From: an uncultured Trueperaceae bacterium
Lineage (GTDB): Bacteria > Deinococcota > Deinococci > Deinococcales > Trueperaceae
Direction of reading: 5' to 3'
Assembly: GCA_963727505.1 (NCBI GenBank)
Contig: CAVSGP010000009.1
Coordinates: 672,001-736,000 of the forward strand
Length of the DNA: 64,000 nucleotides
Shown here: one piece after another, positions 18,704 through 26,529 of the stretch
Position numbering within the stretch: position 1 is the stretch's first letter
How the letters are laid out: every line of letters begins with the position of its first letter
Program-made: the position numbers and the translations under genes
Notes under the pieces: model-generated
Databases searched by the model: none
Told to the model about the DNA's origin: nothing
The model's input: the letters and a program-made list of their open reading frames with translations, nothing else

Positions 18704-19519
18704 GTGAAGGCGTTCCGCATGACGGGGCGGCTTGAGCCCGAGAGCCCCGCCGTGGCCCGGCTCTTCGAATGCGGATCGCTGGGCGCGGTGGAGGAGACCG
18801 GCGGGAGCGGTGTCGAGATCGTGGCGTACTTCGACCGCCAGGTCGAGCTGGGCCTCGAGGGGCGCTGGGAGGACGTCGAGACGTTCGATTACGTCGCCGC
18901 CTACCGGGCCGATCTGAAGGCGGTGCGGGTGGGCTCGCTGGTGGTCGCGCCCACCCACCGGCGCGCCGAGCTGGAGGCCGGCCAGCAGGTGGTATGGCTT
19001 GACCCCGGCACCGCCTTCGGGACCGGCCACCACGAGACGACGCGCCTGGCGCTGGGGACGCTGGTCAGTATCGACCTGGTCGGACGGAGCGTGCTCGACG
19101 TGGGCGCCGGGTCCGGCATCCTCACGGTGGCGGCCGACCGGCTCGGCGCGGGCCTGGCCCTCGGCGTCGATATCGATGCCGCCACCGTCGAGGTCGCGCG
19201 CCGCAACGCCGTGCTCAACCGCTCGCGGGCACGGTTCCTGACGGGTAGCGTCGACCATCCGGATCTTCCTGCGCGCTTCGACGTCATCGTCGCAAACCTC
19301 TACGCCGAGCTCCATGCCGCGCTGATGCCCGCCTACCTGGCCCGCCTGAACGCCGGCGGCGCGCTGCTGTTGACCGGCATCCTCACGCGGCTCGAGCCGA
19401 CCGTACGTCGTGCGCTCCCCGAGGGACTGCCGTTCCGGGTGGAGCGGGAGGGTGAGTGGTCGCTGTTCGCGGTGCGCATGGGGAGCCTCGAGGCGGGGCG
19501 ATCGAGGTGGACGCCATGA
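18704..19519 (+). CDS. prmA: Ribosomal protein L11 methyltransferase
   Basis: LDPGTAFGTGHHETT, VLDVGAGSGIL, DVIVANL, LLTGIL. Confidence 0.93.
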   Translation: MKAFRMTGRLEPESPAVARLFECGSLGAVEETGGSGVEIVAYFDRQVELGLEGRWEDVETFDYVAAYRADLKAVRVGSLVVAPTHRRAELEAGQQVVWLDPGTAFGTGHHETTRLALGTLVSIDLVGRSVLDVGAGSGILTVAADRLGAGLALGVDIDAATVEVARRNAVLNRSRARFLTGSVDHPDLPARFDVIVANLYAELHAALMPAYLARLNAGGALLLTGILTRLEPTVRRALPEGLPFRVEREGEWSLFAVRMGSLEAGRSRWTP

Positions 19520-20272: not shown

Positions 20273-22465
20273 TCAGGCCGTGCGCCTCCGTGTGCGGCGG
20301 GCGCGCTTCTGCTGCTGCATCTTGAACCACACCACCATGGGCGACAGGATGAAGATGCTCGAGTAGGTGCCGAAGCCGATGCCGATGAGCAACGCGATGC
20401 TGAAGCCCCGGAGCACGCTGCCGCCGAACAGCAGCAGCGCGAGGACGGGCAGCAGCGTGGTGCCCGAGGTCGCCACGGTCCGCGACAGCGTCTGGTTCAC
20501 GGCCAGGTCGACGACCTCGGCGTAGCTGCGGTCGCGCACCTTGCGGAGGTTCTCGCGGATGCGGTCGGCGATGATGATGGAGTCGTTGAGAGAATAGCCG
20601 ACGACGAAGAGCACCGCGGCCAGCACCGGGATGCTGAAGGTCACGTTGAACAGGTCGAGCGCGCCCAGCACGATGCCGGCGTCGTGGATGGTGGCGATGA
20701 TGGCGGCCACCGCCACGATCCAGTTGGGCCAGAAGCGCCACGCCACATAGAGCAGGATCAGGCCAAGGGCGACGAGCACCGCCATGATGGCCGCCTGCCG
20801 CAGGTCCGCCCCGACGGCGGGGCCGACGTAATTGGCCTGCAGCAGCTGGCCGTTCAGCTTGGCGGTGAGATCGTTCGCGAACTGGTCGGCGCTCTGCTGA
20901 CCGGTCTCGTTCAGGCCGACGCGGATCGACATGGGGTTGCCCTGCAGGGTGTTGTCGATCACCTTGACGACGGTGGCGTTCTTGCCGGTGATGCCGGGAT
21001 AGTTCAGGTCGGTGATGGCCGAGCGCACGTCGGCAACGGTGGTCCCGTCGGGAACGTCGACGAGGACGTTGGTGCCGCCGGTGAAGTCGGTGGAGAGCTT
21101 CAGGCCTTCGATGGAGACGATGGCGATGGAGGCGATCGCGAGCAGCCCGGAGACGCTCATGATGACCGGCGCCTTGCTGACGAAGCGCACGCCCTCGACG
21201 AAGAAGCCCTTCCAGAGGTAGGTGCGCTTGCTCTTGCGGGCGGTGATGAGGTCGAGGATGAACGGCACCACCACGACGTTCACGAACACCGAGGCGATGA
21301 TGCCGATGGCCAGGGTGATGGCGAAACCGCGTACCGGCCCGGTCGTGTACTGGTAGAGCGCGGCGGCGGCCAGCAGCGTGGTGACGTTGGCGTCGATGAT
21401 GGCCGACAGCGAGTTGCCGAAGCCGGTCTTCATCGCCAGGCGGATCGACTTGCCCGCCCGCAGCTCCTCACGGATGCGCTCGAAGCTGATGACGTTGCCG
21501 TCGACCGCGGCGCCGATGGTGAGCACCAGGCCGGCCAGGCCCGGAAGCGTGAGCGCCGCATGGAGGGCGGCCAGGGTGCCGAAGATGAACAGCATGGCGA
21601 GCCCGAGGCCGAAGGTGAGGACGCCTCCGAAGACCAGGCCGTAATAGCCGATGACCGCCGCCACGACCGCAGCGCCGCCGATGAACGCGGCGATCTTGCC
21701 GGCGTTGATGCTGTCCTGACCGAGCGTCGGGCCGATGGAGCGGATCTCCTCGACGTGGAGGCTGATCGGGAGGCTCCCCGAGCGCAACACCAGCGAGATG
21801 TTGCTGGCTTCCTCCAGCGAGTTGATGCCGGTGATCTGCCCCGAGTCGGAGATGCGCGACTGTAGCGTGGGGGCCGTGATGATCTTTCCGTCCAGCACGA
21901 TCGCCATGCGCCGCCCGACGTTACCGCCGGTGAAGTCGCCGAACTTGCCGGCGTCCTTGGCCTTGATGTTGAAGAACACGGCGGGCCCCATGGTCGAGCC
22001 GCCCACGCGTTGGAAGTCGGCGCGGGCGGTGCTGATGATCTCGCCCGTGAACGCGGGCTTCTCGAGGTCGTCGAGCGTCATCTGGGCGGTGGTCTTGTTC
22101 TGCGCCGACGGTTTGACGAGCTGGAAGTAGAGCTTGGCCTGCTGGCCGATGAGTGAGAGGGCGCGCTTCTGGTCCGCCGCCGTCAGGCCGGGCAGCTCCA
22201 CCACGATGCGGTTCTTGCCCGAGGTGGTGATGAGCGGCTCCGAGACGCCGAACTGGTTGACGCGGTTCTCGATGACGTTGCGGGCGGTCGCCAGGTCTTG
22301 CGTGGAGGGGTTGGCGGTGTTCGACTGCAGCACCACGCGCAGGCCGCCCTGCAGGTCGAGGCCGAGCTTGAGCGGGGCCGTCGCGCTCCAAGGTTGCCAC
22401 AGGTACAAGATCGACGCGATGATCGCTGCCAGCACGACGGCGCCGGTGAAGGTCCTTCGGTTCAC
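20273..22465 (-). CDS. secDF: Fused protein translocase subunit SecDF
   Basis: LGLDLQGG, IGAAVDGNVISFERIREE, DFTGG, VGYSLNDSIIIADRIREN; AGGAG SD at 22472-22476. Confidence 0.96.
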   Translation of the reverse strand: MNRRTFTGAVVLAAIIASILYLWQPWSATAPLKLGLDLQGGLRVVLQSNTANPSTQDLATARNVIENRVNQFGVSEPLITTSGKNRIVVELPGLTAADQKRALSLIGQQAKLYFQLVKPSAQNKTTAQMTLDDLEKPAFTGEIISTARADFQRVGGSTMGPAVFFNIKAKDAGKFGDFTGGNVGRRMAIVLDGKIITAPTLQSRISDSGQITGINSLEEASNISLVLRSGSLPISLHVEEIRSIGPTLGQDSINAGKIAAFIGGAAVVAAVIGYYGLVFGGVLTFGLGLAMLFIFGTLAALHAALTLPGLAGLVLTIGAAVDGNVISFERIREELRAGKSIRLAMKTGFGNSLSAIIDANVTTLLAAAALYQYTTGPVRGFAITLAIGIIASVFVNVVVVPFILDLITARKSKRTYLWKGFFVEGVRFVSKAPVIMSVSGLLAIASIAIVSIEGLKLSTDFTGGTNVLVDVPDGTTVADVRSAITDLNYPGITGKNATVVKVIDNTLQGNPMSIRVGLNETGQQSADQFANDLTAKLNGQLLQANYVGPAVGADLRQAAIMAVLVALGLILLYVAWRFWPNWIVAVAAIIATIHDAGIVLGALDLFNVTFSIPVLAAVLFVVGYSLNDSIIIADRIRENLRKVRDRSYAEVVDLAVNQTLSRTVATSGTTLLPVLALLLFGGSVLRGFSIALLIGIGFGTYSSIFILSPMVVWFKMQQQKRARRTRRRTA

Positions 22466-22559
22466 GGGGGACTCCTAAGACGGGGTTTCGGGGGCTCGAA
22501 GGGGAGGGGCGCGGCGACGCATCGCTGCCGCGGCCCGCGGGGCACGGGGGATCCGGCCC

Positions 22560-22913
22560 TCATCCGCCTTCCAGCTGGAGCCGTCCGTACGCCGTCAACA
22601 GCGCCGTAGGGGCCGGTCCGGCGGTGTCACGACGCGCCGCGCGCAACGCCGCGTTCGGATCGGGGACCGGAAGCGCAGCGCGACCCGGCAGGACCGGCAG
22701 GCGCAGCGTTCCCGTGGCGCCACCGGGGGCGGTGAGACGGGCACCCGTCTCCAGCATGAGCGGGGCGCGGCTCCCCATCCCGGCACCGGCAGTCGACGGA
22801 TCGTGTGCGGCCGCCGCCAGACGCTGGAGGGGGATGGCCGCCAGCGTCACGGCGAGCGCCAGGCTCAATACGAGCCCGCGTCGGCGCCGGAGGGTCGTCA
22901 GGGCGGCCTGCAC
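22560..22913 (-). CDS. secDF upstream ORF with signal-peptide-like N-terminus; candidate translation-arrest leader
   Basis: TAGAAT 7 nt before GTG; RRRRGLVLSLALAVTLAAIPL...AAA; ends LLTAYGRLQLEGG* 94 nt upstream of secDF. Confidence 0.65.
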   Translation of the reverse strand: MQAALTTLRRRRGLVLSLALAVTLAAIPLQRLAAAAHDPSTAGAGMGSRAPLMLETGARLTAPGGATGTLRLPVLPGRAALPVPDPNAALRAARRDTAGPAPTALLTAYGRLQLEGG

Positions 22914-22981
22914 GCCCGCTATTCTAGCGCGCGTCGCTGGGCGAGGTACCGGGCCCGCCGTGCGAGGCCAGGCCCCACGAG

Positions 22982-23019
22982 CGTCGCCCCGGGCGCATGC
23001 GGTTGCGCCCGGGGCGACG
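22982..23019 (-). terminator. Strong hairpin after infB
   Basis: Perfect 16-bp inverted repeat cgtcgccccgggcgca/tgcgcccggggcgacg; no clear U tract. Confidence 0.55.
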
Positions 23020-23058
23020 GCACCGGAAGGGTGGGTGGAGGCGGGTGGGGAGCCGAGC

Positions 23059-24879
23059 TCAGGCCGGCGTCACCTCGACCATCTCGTAGGCCACGATGAC
23101 GTCCCCCTCCTGGACGTTGTCGTAGTTCTGCAGGTTGATGCCGCACTCGAAGCCGGAGGCCACCTCGCGCACGTCGTCCTTGAAGCGCCGCAGCTGCGCG
23201 ACGGAGCCCTTGTAGACCTCCTTGCCACCACGCGTCAGGCGGGCCTTGGAGCCACGCCGGATCAGGCCGTCGGTGACGTAGGAGCCTGCGATGTTGCCGC
23301 TTCGGGGCACCCGGATGACGGCGCGCACCTCGGCGTGACCGATGACCCGCTCCTCGAATTCCGGCTCGATCTGGCCGCGGATCATGCGCTGCACGTCCTC
23401 GATGAGCTCGTAGATGATCTTGTAGCTCTTGATCGCGACCTTCTGCCGCTCGGCCGACTTCTTCACGCTACCGGGCGGATTCACGCCGAAGGTGATGACC
23501 GTGGCGTCGGCCGTGCTGGCCAGCAGCAGGTCGGACTCGGTGGGCGCGCCCACTTCGGCCAGCATGATCTCGAGCTCGACCTCGTCGGTGGCTTCCGCCT
23601 CCCGCGCGAGAACGCCCTTGATCGCCTCCAACGAACCCTGTGCATCCGCCCGCAGGACCAGGTTGATGACCTTCTTGGTGGGTTTGCCGAACAGGTCGGC
23701 GAGGGTCAGACCCTTGCGGCCGATGGACTCCAGCTCGGTTTCCTTGCGCTGGTCGCGCCGCTGGCCCGCGAGCTGCTTTGCCGTCTGTTCGTCCGCCGCC
23801 GCCTCCACCAGGTCCCCGGCGTTCGGCTGCTCGGAGAAGCCGAGGATCTGAACAGGGGCCGACGGCCCGGCCGCATCGACGATCGTGCCGGTGTGATCGG
23901 TGAGACGGCGGACCTTGGCCCACGCCTCGCCCGACACGATGTAGTCGGCGACGCGTAGGGTGCCTTCCTGCACCAGCACGGTCGCCAGCACACCTGCGCG
24001 CTTGTCGAGCACCGACTCGATCACGATCCCCTTGGCGGGCCCGTCCGAGGTCGCACGCAGCTCCTCGACTTCGGCAACCAGCGAGATCATCTCCAGCAGA
24101 TCGTCGACGCCGTCGCCCGTCTTGGCGCTGATCTCGACCACGATGGTGTCCCCTCCGAAGTCTTCGGGGACGAGCTCGACCTGCATCAGGTCCCGCTTGA
24201 CCTTCTCCGGGTCGGACTGGGGCAGGTCGCACTTGTTGATCGCCACGATGATCGGCACCTTGGCGGCCTTGGCGTGGGCGATGGCCTCGCGCGACTGCGG
24301 CATGATGCTGTCGTCGGCAGCAACCACGATCACGGCGATGTCGGTGGCGTTGGTACCGCGCTGTCGAATGGACGTGAAGGCTTCGTGCCCCGGTGTGTCC
24401 AGGAAGGTCACCAGCCCGCCCTTGGTCTCGGCCTGATAGGCGCCGATGTGCTGGGTGATGCCCCCGGCTTCACCTTCGGCCACTTTGGTGTGCCGGATGT
24501 AGTCGAGCAGAGTGGTCTTGCCGTGGTCGACATGACCCATCACCGTCACGACCGGCGCCCGCAGAGGAGCGTCGGCGGTCGCAGCCTTGGCCTCGTCGGC
24601 CTTCGGCTTGGGTTTGGGCTTCGTCGCCGTGGCCGTGGCGCCGCCGGACGCGGGCTCTGCGGCCTTCGCCGGAGCCGCGGGCCGGTCGGCGGTCACGGGG
24701 GCGGGCTCGTCACCGTGGTCGCTCTCGACCAGTTGCCGCACCGTGTCCGCTACGTCGTGCTCGAGAGTGCTCGAGTGCGACTTGTATTCCACGCCCATCT
24801 CGTCGAGGATCGCCAGCATCTCCTTGGTCTCGATGCCGAGGTCCTTCGCCAGCTGATAGATCCGTACCTTATCGGACAT
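23059..24879 (-). CDS. infB: Translation initiation factor IF-2 (short form)
   Basis: [46 protein letters not shown]. Confidence 0.98.
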
Positions 24880-25195
24880 TCATGCCTCCGTCCCGATGCC
24901 TAGCTCGAGGAGTGCCGCCGGCCGTCTCGGAGGCCAGAGCCTCGGAGACGGCTGCGAGCAGTGTGCGGACGTGCCCCGCCTGGCCTCGAAAGGCCTGCTT
25001 GAGGCGCTTCTCCGCAGGATCGCCGGCGCAGCGCCGGCACACCCAGGTGCCGCGCCCCCCGGCGCGGCCTTCCGGGTCGAGCGCGAACCGGCCGTCGACG
25101 TCCCGCACGAGGCGCACCAGCTCCGCCTTGGGCAGCGATGCGCGACACATCACGCAGCGCCTCAGGGGCACGTGTTTTCCGGTCGAGCCCGCCAT
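24869..25195 (-). CDS. ylxR: YlxR/RnpM (DUF448) RNA-binding protein
   Basis: PLRRCVMCR, LVRLV, GRGTWVC; located between nusA and infB. Confidence 0.9.
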   Translation of the reverse strand: MAGSTGKHVPLRRCVMCRASLPKAELVRLVRDVDGRFALDPEGRAGGRGTWVCRRCAGDPAEKRLKQAFRGQAGHVRTLLAAVSEALASETAGGTPRARHRDGGMNVR

Positions 25196-25197
25196 GC

Positions 25198-26529
25198 CTA
25201 GGAGATCCGCTCCTCTTCCGTCGCTTCGTCGGCCTCGGGTTCGGAAGCCGTAGGCTCCGCGCCCCCGGCTTCGCCAGCGGCCGCGTCCGAGGTCTCGGCG
25301 TCGCCTTCCGTATCGGCGGAGGCGGCTTCGTCCTCGCCCGAAGCCGCGGCTTCGTCGCCGGACTCCGGGGCGGCCTCACTCGGCTCCGGATCGGGCGAGG
25401 CGCTGAACAACGCATCGAACGCCGCATGGCCGCGGTCGACGCCGCCAACATCGTCCATGCGGGAGGCGGCAGCTTGCATGGCGGCATCCAGATCGCTGAT
25501 CGACTCCGACGACACCAGATCGATCTTGAAGCCCGTGAGCTTGGCGGCCAGCCGCACGTTCTGGCCCCCCTTGCCGATCGCCAGCGAGAGTTGATCGCTG
25601 CCGACCGTAACGCGCGTCTGCTTCTCGTCGAGGTCGAGCTCGATCGTGCCGACCTTGGCGGGGGAGAGCGCGTTGCGGATGAACTCGCGCGCGTTGGGGT
25701 CCCACATGATGATATCGACGCGCTCGCGCTGCAGCTCCGCCGTGACGGCCTGGATGCGGCTCCCGCGGTGCCCGATACAGGCGCCGATGGGGTCGACGTT
25801 CGGATTGGTGCTGGTGACCGCCACCTTCGAGCGCTGTCCGGCCTCGCGCGCCACCGCCTTGATCTCGACCGTACCGTCGGCCACCTCGGGGATCTCCTGG
25901 CGCATCAGGTACTCGAGGAGCTGAGGTGCGGCACGGGACACCAGGATGCTGGGCCCGCGCGTGGAGAGCTCGACCTTCTCGACGTAGACCTTGACGCGCA
26001 TCCCGACCATGTAGCGCTCGCCGTGGATCTGTTCGCGTGGCGGCATGATGGCTTCCCCACGGCCGAGATCGACGAAGACGTTGCGCTTGTTGTCGGTGCG
26101 CGAGACCACGCCGGTGATGATGTCGCCGGCACGGTCCTTGTACTCCTCGAAGACGATGGCCCGCTCCGCTTCACGGATCTTCTGGGTGATGACCTGCTTG
26201 GTCGTCTGCACCGCGATGCGGGTGAACTTCTCGGGATCGGTGGGGAACTCCATCTCCATCCCGACCTCGACGCTGTCGTCGAGGTCCAACCCCTCGGTCA
26301 GCGCGATCTCCTTGTCCTCGTCCTCCACCTCTTCGACCACACGGCGGATGATCAGAACCTCCATCTCGCCGGAGTCGGGGTCCAAGCTGACCTCGATCTG
26401 CTTGCCCGGCATCACGTTGCGCTCGAAAGCCTGCTCGAGGGCCTCCTCGAGGCTCCCGAGCAACTGCTCCTTGTCCAGGTTCCGCTCCGCTGCAAGCATG
26501 TTCAGAGCGTCCACGAATTCCTTGTTCAT
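25198..26529 (-). CDS. nusA: Transcription factor NusA with acidic C-terminal tail
   Basis: RIAVQTTKQV, S1 and KH motifs (AREAGQRSKVAV, DPIGACIG, LSLAIGKGGQNVRLAAKL). Confidence 0.97.
   Translation of the reverse strand: MNKEFVDALNMLAAERNLDKEQLLGSLEEALEQAFERNVMPGKQIEVSLDPDSGEMEVLIIRRVVEEVEDEDKEIALTEGLDLDDSVEVGMEMEFPTDPEKFTRIAVQTTKQVITQKIREAERAIVFEEYKDRAGDIITGVVSRTDNKRNVFVDLGRGEAIMPPREQIHGERYMVGMRVKVYVEKVELSTRGPSILVSRAAPQLLEYLMRQEIPEVADGTVEIKAVAREAGQRSKVAVTSTNPNVDPIGACIGHRGSRIQAVTAELQRERVDIIMWDPNAREFIRNALSPAKVGTIELDLDEKQTRVTVGSDQLSLAIGKGGQNVRLAAKLTGFKIDLVSSESISDLDAAMQAAASRMDDVGGVDRGHAAFDALFSASPDPEPSEAAPESGDEAAASGEDEAASADTEGDAETSDAAAGEAGGAEPTASEPEADEATEEERIS

Follow-up and report, generated by a model that had tools for sequence, protein, structure and literature searches.

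A small open reading frame (ORF) lying directly ahead of secDF probably encodes, judging from its sequence and its conservation, a member of a new family of arrest peptides, in which a programmed arrest at or next to the stop codon would feed back on secDF. We found it in a stretch of 64,000 nucleotides (nt) from an uncultured Trueperaceae bacterium (NCBI GenBank assembly GCA_963727505.1, contig CAVSGP010000009.1, positions 672,001 to 736,000 of the forward strand), hereafter called the window, whose first letter is position 1. The evidence consists of an ending, R-x-Q-x-[DE]-G-G-stop, that is kept as peptide in five families of Deinococcales, of a hydrophobic N-terminal segment present in every copy, and of a linker between the two that drifts almost freely. 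Folding of the loci does not support a hairpin over the ribosome-binding site of secDF as the general read-out.

Conservation of the leader ORF

The leader ORF is real and conserved, far beyond what chance would give. An earlier reading of the window, made from its letters alone (the sequence-only reading), had proposed a 117-codon frame, a gap of 94 nt before secDF, a TAGAAT hexamer, a Shine-Dalgarno (SD) sequence and a particular peptide ending, all of which lie exactly where it had put them (Table 1). A six-frame search of 41 related genomes found the frame open, without stops, in nine of nine genomes of the same genus, at 53 to 90% identity, and also in two further genera. All twelve copies are directly 5' of secDF and end in (Y/L)GR(L/R/F)(Q/E)L(E/D)GG-stop. 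Within the window's genome, an L[ED]GG ending is unique to the leader ORF among 27,909 six-frame ORFs of at least 60 residues. Inside the long ORFs of this genome, LEGG and QLEGG are not avoided (169 vs 151 expected, and 4 vs 6 expected, respectively).

Differences among the leader ORFs of 10 genus members fall mostly on the third codon position (2664, vs 1776 at the first and 1564 at the second). Of the codon differences, the share that is synonymous amounts to 0.67 for the C-terminal motif, 0.58 for a motif in the middle of the peptide, 0.42 for the N-terminus and 0.20 for the linker. Two short stretches are therefore under purifying selection as peptide, while the linker drifts.

To follow the ORF further, DNA 5' of secDF was taken from one genome per species across the order, and the forward frames of the resulting 72 loci were read. 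An ORF of at least 50 residues ending in [ED]GG-stop precedes secDF in 53 loci from five families: 24 of 35 loci in the Trueperaceae, the window's own family (one locus being cut by a contig end), 11 of 12 Deinococcus-type loci (the twelfth ends in ...WQLEG-stop), 9 of 10 Oceanithermus-type loci, all 7 Thermus/Allomeiothermus-type loci, and 2 of 8 loci in a fifth family. When the full ending R-[LRW]-Q-[LTS]-[DE]-G-G-stop is asked for, a small ORF carries it in 55 of the 72 loci, and the fifth family rises to 4 of 8 with the addition of L073 and L079. A pattern left open at its end, [RKQN][LRWQY]x[LTSMQ][ED]GG, occurs 56 times on the forward frames of the 72 loci, with a stop codon immediately next in 55 cases, one per locus; on the reverse strands of the same loci it does not occur at all. 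Comparing the ORFs upstream of secDF across relatives, as the sequence-only reading had advised, thus bore out its expectation: the signal-like segment, a short mid motif and the C-terminal motif with its stop are all that is conserved in the five families. The secDF and YajC tallies given in this text include one unpublished genome (G057), on which no leader-ORF count rests.

The genus holding the Thermus relatives has a match in 29 of 32 species genomes. Members that can be named, all recorded as hypothetical proteins, are Ocepr_1351 of Oceanithermus profundus, a protein of O. desulfurans and Mesil_1472 of Allomeiothermus silvanus. Members from Thermus include, by name, T. tenuipuniceus, T. 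altitudinis and T. scotoductus; T. thermophilus was not confirmed by name. Twenty-three loci fall in Deinococcus or Deinococcaceae records. At the Deinococcus-type loci no infB-like ORF is listed just 5' of the leader ORF and the link to secDF is retained, so that secDF is the conserved partner.

Some departures from the common ending were seen. Two Trueperaceae loci have the variant endings GRLQL-stop and QWQQWRL-stop, and several loci of the fifth family have upstream ORFs (uORFs) that end otherwise, for example in ...RFSRWNE-stop or ...RYGRWVL-stop. In the same family, SecDF of loci L074 and L077 has an N-terminal extension of about 100 residues, with 134 to 144 residues to the GG motif vs about 34 elsewhere. 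The Oceanithermus leader-peptide cluster contains one member labelled Thermopetrobacter sp., a metagenome-assembled genome in which it sits on a 1.9-kb contig; this label is probably a binning error and not the sign of a relative outside the phylum.

The C-terminal motif and its stop codon

Motif statistics were drawn from 51 loci, in which positions -1 to -3 served as the selection criterion and so carry no independent weight. R holds position -7 in 43 loci, and Q holds position -5 in 40. The counts are L 31, R 14 and W 4 at position -6 and L 34, T 11, S 4 and M 2 at position -4, and position -3 divides into D (29) and E (22). Positions -9 and -12 are hydrophobic or aromatic. Proline is found at none of positions -1 to -7 in any of the 51 loci, in keeping with the earlier remark that the motif is not of the RAPP/RAGP kind. 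In the alignment of close relatives, the columns of the motif are invariant or nearly so.

At the nucleotide level the motif is free to vary. All four glycine codons and five arginine codons are used, and the stop is TGA in 23 loci, TAG in 20 and TAA in 8. This synonymous variation, together with the use of three stops, shows that selection acts on the amino acids followed by any stop; neither an RNA word nor a single release factor is what is constrained. The stop codon belongs to the motif.

Anatomy of the peptide

The sequence-only reading had described the N-terminus as signal-peptide-like, with which hydropathy and a predicted helix agree. In the window peptide, the hydrophobic segment has RRRR before it and AAA-HD after it, and reaches a hydropathy peak of 2.48; AlphaFold2 predicts a confident helix over residues 2 to 36 (block predicted local distance difference test, pLDDT, 86 to 97). 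A hydrophobic window of 15 residues scoring 1.6 to 2.8 is present in 53 of 53 peptides. By hydropathy and by predicted helix, the segment looks like a signal peptide or a signal anchor. With the family alignment as input, the N-terminal helix is the only confident part of the AlphaFold2 model (predicted template modelling score, pTM, 0.33).

From the end of the hydrophobic segment to the C-terminus the 53 peptides measure 83 residues in the median (75 to 91, plus one outlier of 107), for a median total length of 114. An alignment of 52 peptides from the five families has a mean column identity of 20%, and its majority consensus reads G-x5-P-x-L-x-E past the hydrophobic segment and L-x3-GRLQLDGG at the end. 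None of these 52 members matches Pfam or NCBIfam. Profile searches of 5.8 billion proteins returned 21 and 34 relatives, all of them unnamed or 'hypothetical' and free of Pfam domains, and a look-up in a protein Atlas gave only generic clusters of small hypothetical proteins (score 0.93).

Two other families of peptides with a Gly-Gly were considered and set aside by reasoning. A ubiquitin-like or sulfur-carrier tail does not agree with the presence of an export signal and the lack of a predicted fold, and in a bacteriocin-type leader the double glycine stands ahead of a core peptide, not at the stop.

As a separate observation, four Trueperaceae peptides (L036, L043, L049 and L053, three of them from low-GC genomes) have a second strongly hydrophobic stretch about 18 to 29 residues before the C-terminal motif, which would still sit inside the ribosome tunnel when the stop codon is reached.

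Relation to known arrest peptides

Fujiwara et al. (2024) screened more than 30,000 genomes for Sec-monitoring arrest peptides by four in-silico criteria, which are also those of Sakiyama (2021): the uORF belongs to a sec or yidC gene and has no functional annotation, its N-terminus contains a signal or transmembrane segment, its C-terminus is conserved, and the spacer between the two exceeds 30 residues, which is the length needed to expose the signal (PMC10987492). The leader family has all four properties: in the window the ORF lies 94 nt 5' of secDF and has no annotated function, the hydrophobic segment is present in all 53 peptides, R-x-Q-x-[DE]-G-G-stop is conserved in five families, and the spacer has a median of 83 residues (range 75 to 107).

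Deinococcus, Thermus and Truepera are unmentioned in the main text of that survey (PMC10987492). In the searchable part of its supplements, Deinococcota appear only in the genome list (with Truepera radiovictrix and Deinococcus radiodurans) and not in the arrest-peptide table, and QLEGG, QLDGG, QTDGG and QSDGG are not among the uORF endings; an unreported Deinococcota cluster in the remaining supplements is possible. We found no full text combining Truepera or Deinococc* with arrest-peptide terms, and the LudP preprint likewise has no such combination. Within the searchable surveys, then, the leader motif is not listed.

By analogy, the closest counterparts of the leader family are classes with a stall at the stop codon. 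Where the motif abuts the stop in the published cases, as far as the available text describes them, the ribosome stalls with the stop codon in the A site in a stop-dependent manner (PMC10987492). [quoted passage not shown] They differ in the motif itself, which is N-A-P / N-S-P or D-G-M-K, whereas the leader family, of the Deinococcota, has [DE]-G-G as its candidate arrest motif. The D-G of DGMK and of LudP recalls the acidic-glycine pair of the leader family, where the pair is one position nearer to the stop; this resemblance is only a lead.

VemP relies on an SD-sequestering stem-loop. The VemP-secD2F2 system of Vibrio is set apart by its description, as an elongation stall that controls a second secDF paralogue, whereas the leader family goes with a single secDF, a spacer of about 83 residues, a motif at the stop and no supported SD hairpin. 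Even so, VemP is, as here, a Sec-targeted peptide encoded directly 5' of secDF (PMC7793623, PMC11470409, in the parts available); its spacer is given a median of 133 residues (PMC10987492, available text).

SecM-secA, ApdA, ApdP, ApcA and the RQH family share the overall layout and the presumed logic of an arrest relieved by export. SecM and the RAPP/RAGP-like peptides block peptide-bond formation during elongation, and the leader family has no R-A-P-P-like sequence. TnaC, ahead of tnaAB in E. coli, is a leader peptide held at its own stop codon, and its read-out is the blocking of Rho, not SD unmasking. Unlike the leader family, TnaC is a sensor of tryptophan, lacks an export signal and has proline as its last residue. 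As for glycine as last residue, the available text of a study of termination reports that glycine before the stop gave the slowest release among the residues tested in a eukaryotic assay, and that such eukaryotic rates correlate with those of bacterial RF1 and RF2 (r of 0.98 and 0.94; PMC10802582).

Start codon, putative promoter and upstream stem

The TAGAAT hexamer had been offered by the sequence-only reading as a leaderless-type -10 box, and both hexamer and spacing held up in comparison: all 11 relatives examined keep a TAnnAT 7 nt ahead of a GTG that is itself conserved. An ATG overlaps the hexamer in 10 of these 11 relatives. The window has ATA instead, which favours initiation at the GTG and a -10 role for the hexamer. 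More widely, a hand count without chance control gives TAnnnT 6 to 10 nt before a candidate start in 29 of 53 loci, for example TAGACT at six loci of the Oceanithermus type and TATGCT at most of those of the Deinococcus type. Leaderless mRNAs beginning with 5'-AUG or 5'-GUG represent 60% of mRNAs in Deinococcus deserti, according to the available text of PMC4007540. By its sequence and position, TAGAAT would be the promoter of a leaderless or near-leaderless transcript. A scan for consensus promoters, which needs both hexamers, flagged nothing on the minus strand.

Not all loci follow this arrangement. By the main count, in two Trueperaceae loci (L012/L040 and L060) the leader ATG overlaps the infB stop (TGATG), which hints that the ORF is translationally coupled to infB and has no promoter of its own, and at three Thermus-type loci a TTG is preceded by a strong SD. 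In one metatranscriptome, 0.06 of the sampled words were recovered; the contigs are conserved infB and secDF parts from other organisms, none of them covers the ORF, and they are uninformative on its transcription.

Between infB and the leader ORF, the strong hairpin reported earlier is confirmed: the 149-nt region 22914-23062 (minus strand) contains a perfect stem of 16 bp and folds with a z of -3.2, better than 199 of 200 shuffles. The stem is a possible operon boundary or terminator. A terminator scan, which requires a T-run, detected none in the region.

Points against arrest and alternative explanations

Several observations weigh against a programmed arrest that acts on secDF, or against parts of it, and are gathered here with the alternatives on which they bear. 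The start codon and the transcription start, to begin with, are deduced, as just described. At 17 of the 72 loci (including the one cut by a contig end) no leader ORF was detected, and in 5 Trueperaceae loci infB abuts secDF directly, from which it follows that the ORF is dispensable.

The GC content at third codon positions is 0.81 in the leader ORF vs 0.95 in secDF and 0.89 in infB. A value below that of neighbouring genes would suit a chance open frame in GC-rich DNA that is not a gene, and long spurious frames are indeed common here, 56 ORFs of at least 40 residues overlapping 7.5 kb. The comparative data already contradict this scenario, as 53 genomes from five families, AT-rich ones included, have the frame open and its ends conserved, its substitutions follow a coding-like pattern and the background of its ending is 1 in 27,909. 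We consider the chance that it is correct negligible.

The spacer is held near a constant length although the sequence of the linker drifts almost neutrally; in the available text of PMC10987492, the spacers of secA and secDF uORFs are typically longer and vary widely. A second conserved motif moreover lies within the exported part, so that the mature peptide could have a job of its own. Both traits would suit a small protein, exported or anchored in the membrane, that acts together with SecDF or elsewhere in the envelope and undergoes no programmed stall. Its C-terminus would then be a tag recognised by a partner or, for instance, by a PDZ-type protease, and its post-signal motif would be a binding element. 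The near-constant overall length and the conserved gene order with secDF agree with this. YajC is the usual small partner of SecDF, and its profile, PF02699, has no match in the genome of the window, nor in any of the 41 Trueperaceae genomes searched; it was detected in a Thermus thermophilus control.

The leader ORF has no match to PF02699 either, and it does not look like a YajC substitute, because the Thermus-type genus has the uORF and PF02699 is found in the Thermus thermophilus control; some Trueperaceae without YajC also do without the leader ORF. Further against a small working protein are the almost neutral linker, with its synonymous share of 0.20, the lack of a predicted fold or of any family match, and the restriction of conservation to some 12 residues that finish exactly at the stop, which is the pattern of arrest peptides. 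A prediction of the complex between SecDF (33-row alignment) and the peptide (52 rows) gave no answer in two runs (score 0.00), which is evidence neither way. The alternative to be taken seriously is a stable small protein of the envelope with a tie to SecDF; we nevertheless regard it as unlikely.

The remaining points concern the RNA. The sequence-only reading had drawn three nested pairs between the last codons of the ORF and the bases next to the SD of secDF, namely gacgg/ccgtc, gctc/gagc and gaagg/ccttc. They are present in the sequence at the positions it gave, but their pairing is no better than chance: the duplex between ORF end and intergenic region has a z of -0.15 in the window and a mean z of -0.72 in 22 Trueperaceae loci, only 2 of which are below -2. 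The hairpin itself fares no better, since the minus-strand region 22440-22620 folds with a z of +0.49, and 140 of 200 shuffles fold at least as well. In addition, the distance between the ORF and secDF ranges from 52 to 341 nt, and the sequences in between do not permit an alignment.

The opening of an SD-occluding hairpin by a stalled ribosome, also part of that reading, was modelled in the 51 loci. The folded stretch began 30 nt ahead of the stop and reached 20 nt beyond the start of secDF, either free or with 30 nt around the stop blocked; in the control, the central part of the intergenic region was shuffled. The ribosome-binding site has a mean accessibility of 0.46 when free and 0.49 when blocked, vs 0.43 and 0.46 in the shuffled controls, a change of 0.024 vs 0.027. 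It rises by more than 0.15 in 9 loci and falls by more than 0.15 in 1; the window locus is among the risers (0.37 to 0.55, vs 0.37 to 0.40 in shuffles). A first comparison on 22 Trueperaceae loci had given 0.34 free vs 0.32 stalled. Read-out through an SD hairpin is not supported, and the pairing that in the window reaches SD-adjacent bases is not conserved.

RNA structure or transcription attenuation might also act on secDF without any peptide-specific arrest, the ORF being then a plain leader and its conserved end an RNA element. In many loci the purine-rich last codons, often the last four, are predicted to pair with the downstream pyrimidine-rich tract, and in four loci (L038, L042, L045 and L058) the SD itself lies within the 3' arm. 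However, codons of the L-[ED]-G-G residues pair with the intergenic region no better than with its shuffled versions (0.658 vs 0.634, Wilcoxon p 0.19), each motif position exchanges its synonymous codons freely, all three stop codons occur, and the motif persists in low-GC genomes in which the DNA can otherwise no longer be recognised. We find this scenario most improbable. Covariation at the third base of the [DE] codon (G-C in 13 loci, C-G in 11, A-U in 3 and U-A in 3) was considered as a sign of pairing and rejected, there being no excess of pairing over shuffles.

A proposed export monitor

The conserved anatomy and the pattern of selection are what we observe, and from them we infer each functional step of the following scheme of arrest. 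Transcription would start a few bases past TAGAAT, with GTG at or near the 5' end, and the leader ORF and secDF would share one mRNA. The N-terminal hydrophobic segment would bring the nascent chain to the Sec translocon. With the ribosome at ...G-R-L-Q-L-E-G-G and the stop codon in its A site, the dozen residues at the end of the chain, lying in the exit tunnel, would hinder release, and the slow release intrinsic to a C-terminal glycine would add to the hold-up, making this a termination arrest. Translocation assisted by SecDF would pull on the chain and relieve the arrest; with poor export, the ribosome would stay at the end of the ORF and secDF expression would go up. In the window, the stalled ribosome would melt the pairing that reaches the SD-adjacent bases. 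Alternative read-outs could be protection of the mRNA, or the blocking of premature transcription termination.

A more far-reaching proposal, which we put forward tentatively and hold to be possible rather than probable, is that R-x-Q-x-[DE]-G-G-stop defines a new release-factor-blocking class native to Thermus/Deinococcus ribosomes, and serves as a phylum-wide monitor of SecDF-dependent export with the spacer of about 83 residues as a ruler and a read-out other than SD-hairpin unmasking.

If stalling is true, export-monitoring arrest peptides would gain a new motif class and a new phylum, and the controlled step would be termination at Gly-Gly-stop, not elongation. The sole SecDF of a whole phylum would be under feedback control. 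Much of bacterial ribosome structure is based on Thermus and Deinococcus ribosomes, and a natural arrest sequence for these ribosomes would suit structural work. As no conserved SD hairpin was found, a stalled ribosome might act on the gene that follows in another manner, which the read-out could bring to light. Should there be no stalling, the leader ORF still defines an unannotated, phylum-wide family of small proteins tied to secDF.

Organization of the locus

The features of the locus are collected in Table 1. The window's genome has a single secDF match. On the other side of the leader ORF, nusA, ylxR and infB form an ordinary operon.

Table 1. Features at the secDF leader locus (positions in the window)
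Feature	Position	Strand	Description	Basis
prmA	18704-19519	+	PF06325	profile match
secDF	20273..22465	-	fused gene, 730 residues, GTG start at 22465	Pfam SecD_SecF_C, SecDF_P1_head, SecD_1st, Sec_GG
Intergenic region	22466..22559	-	94 nt, pyrimidine-rich, with pairing segments for the last ORF codons	
SD of secDF	22472-22476	-	AGGAG	sequence
Leader ORF	22560..22913	-	117 residues, GTG start, ending LLTAYGRLQLEGG-TGA	TGA at 22560-22562
C-terminal motif	22563..22598	-	candidate arrest sequence, residues 106-117 LTAYGRLQLEGG, adjoining the stop	
Mid motif	22734..22787	-	residues 43-60 GAGMGSRAPLMLETGARL, after the hydrophobic segment	alignments
N-terminal hydrophobic segment	22827..22877	-	residues 13-29 GLVLSLALAVTLAAIPL	hydropathy, AlphaFold2
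-10-like hexamer	22921..22926	-	TAGAAT, 7 nt 5' of the GTG	
Stem-loop	22982..23019	-	GC-rich, perfect 16-bp stem, between infB stop and leader ORF, without T-run	
infB	23059..24879	-	606 residues, upstream neighbour, outside the element	Pfam GTP_EFTU, IF-2, IF2_N
ylxR	24869-25195	-	PF04296	profile match
nusA	25198-26529	-		

A last observation concerns the beginning of secDF. Its codons 1 to 8 (22440-22465; AAC CGA AGG ACC TTC ACC GG) are near-invariant as nucleotides among the 10 genus members (L001-L010), and they include two arginine codons, CGA and AGG, that are unusual in a GC-rich genome. This invariance may reflect a constraint at the RNA level or on initiation.

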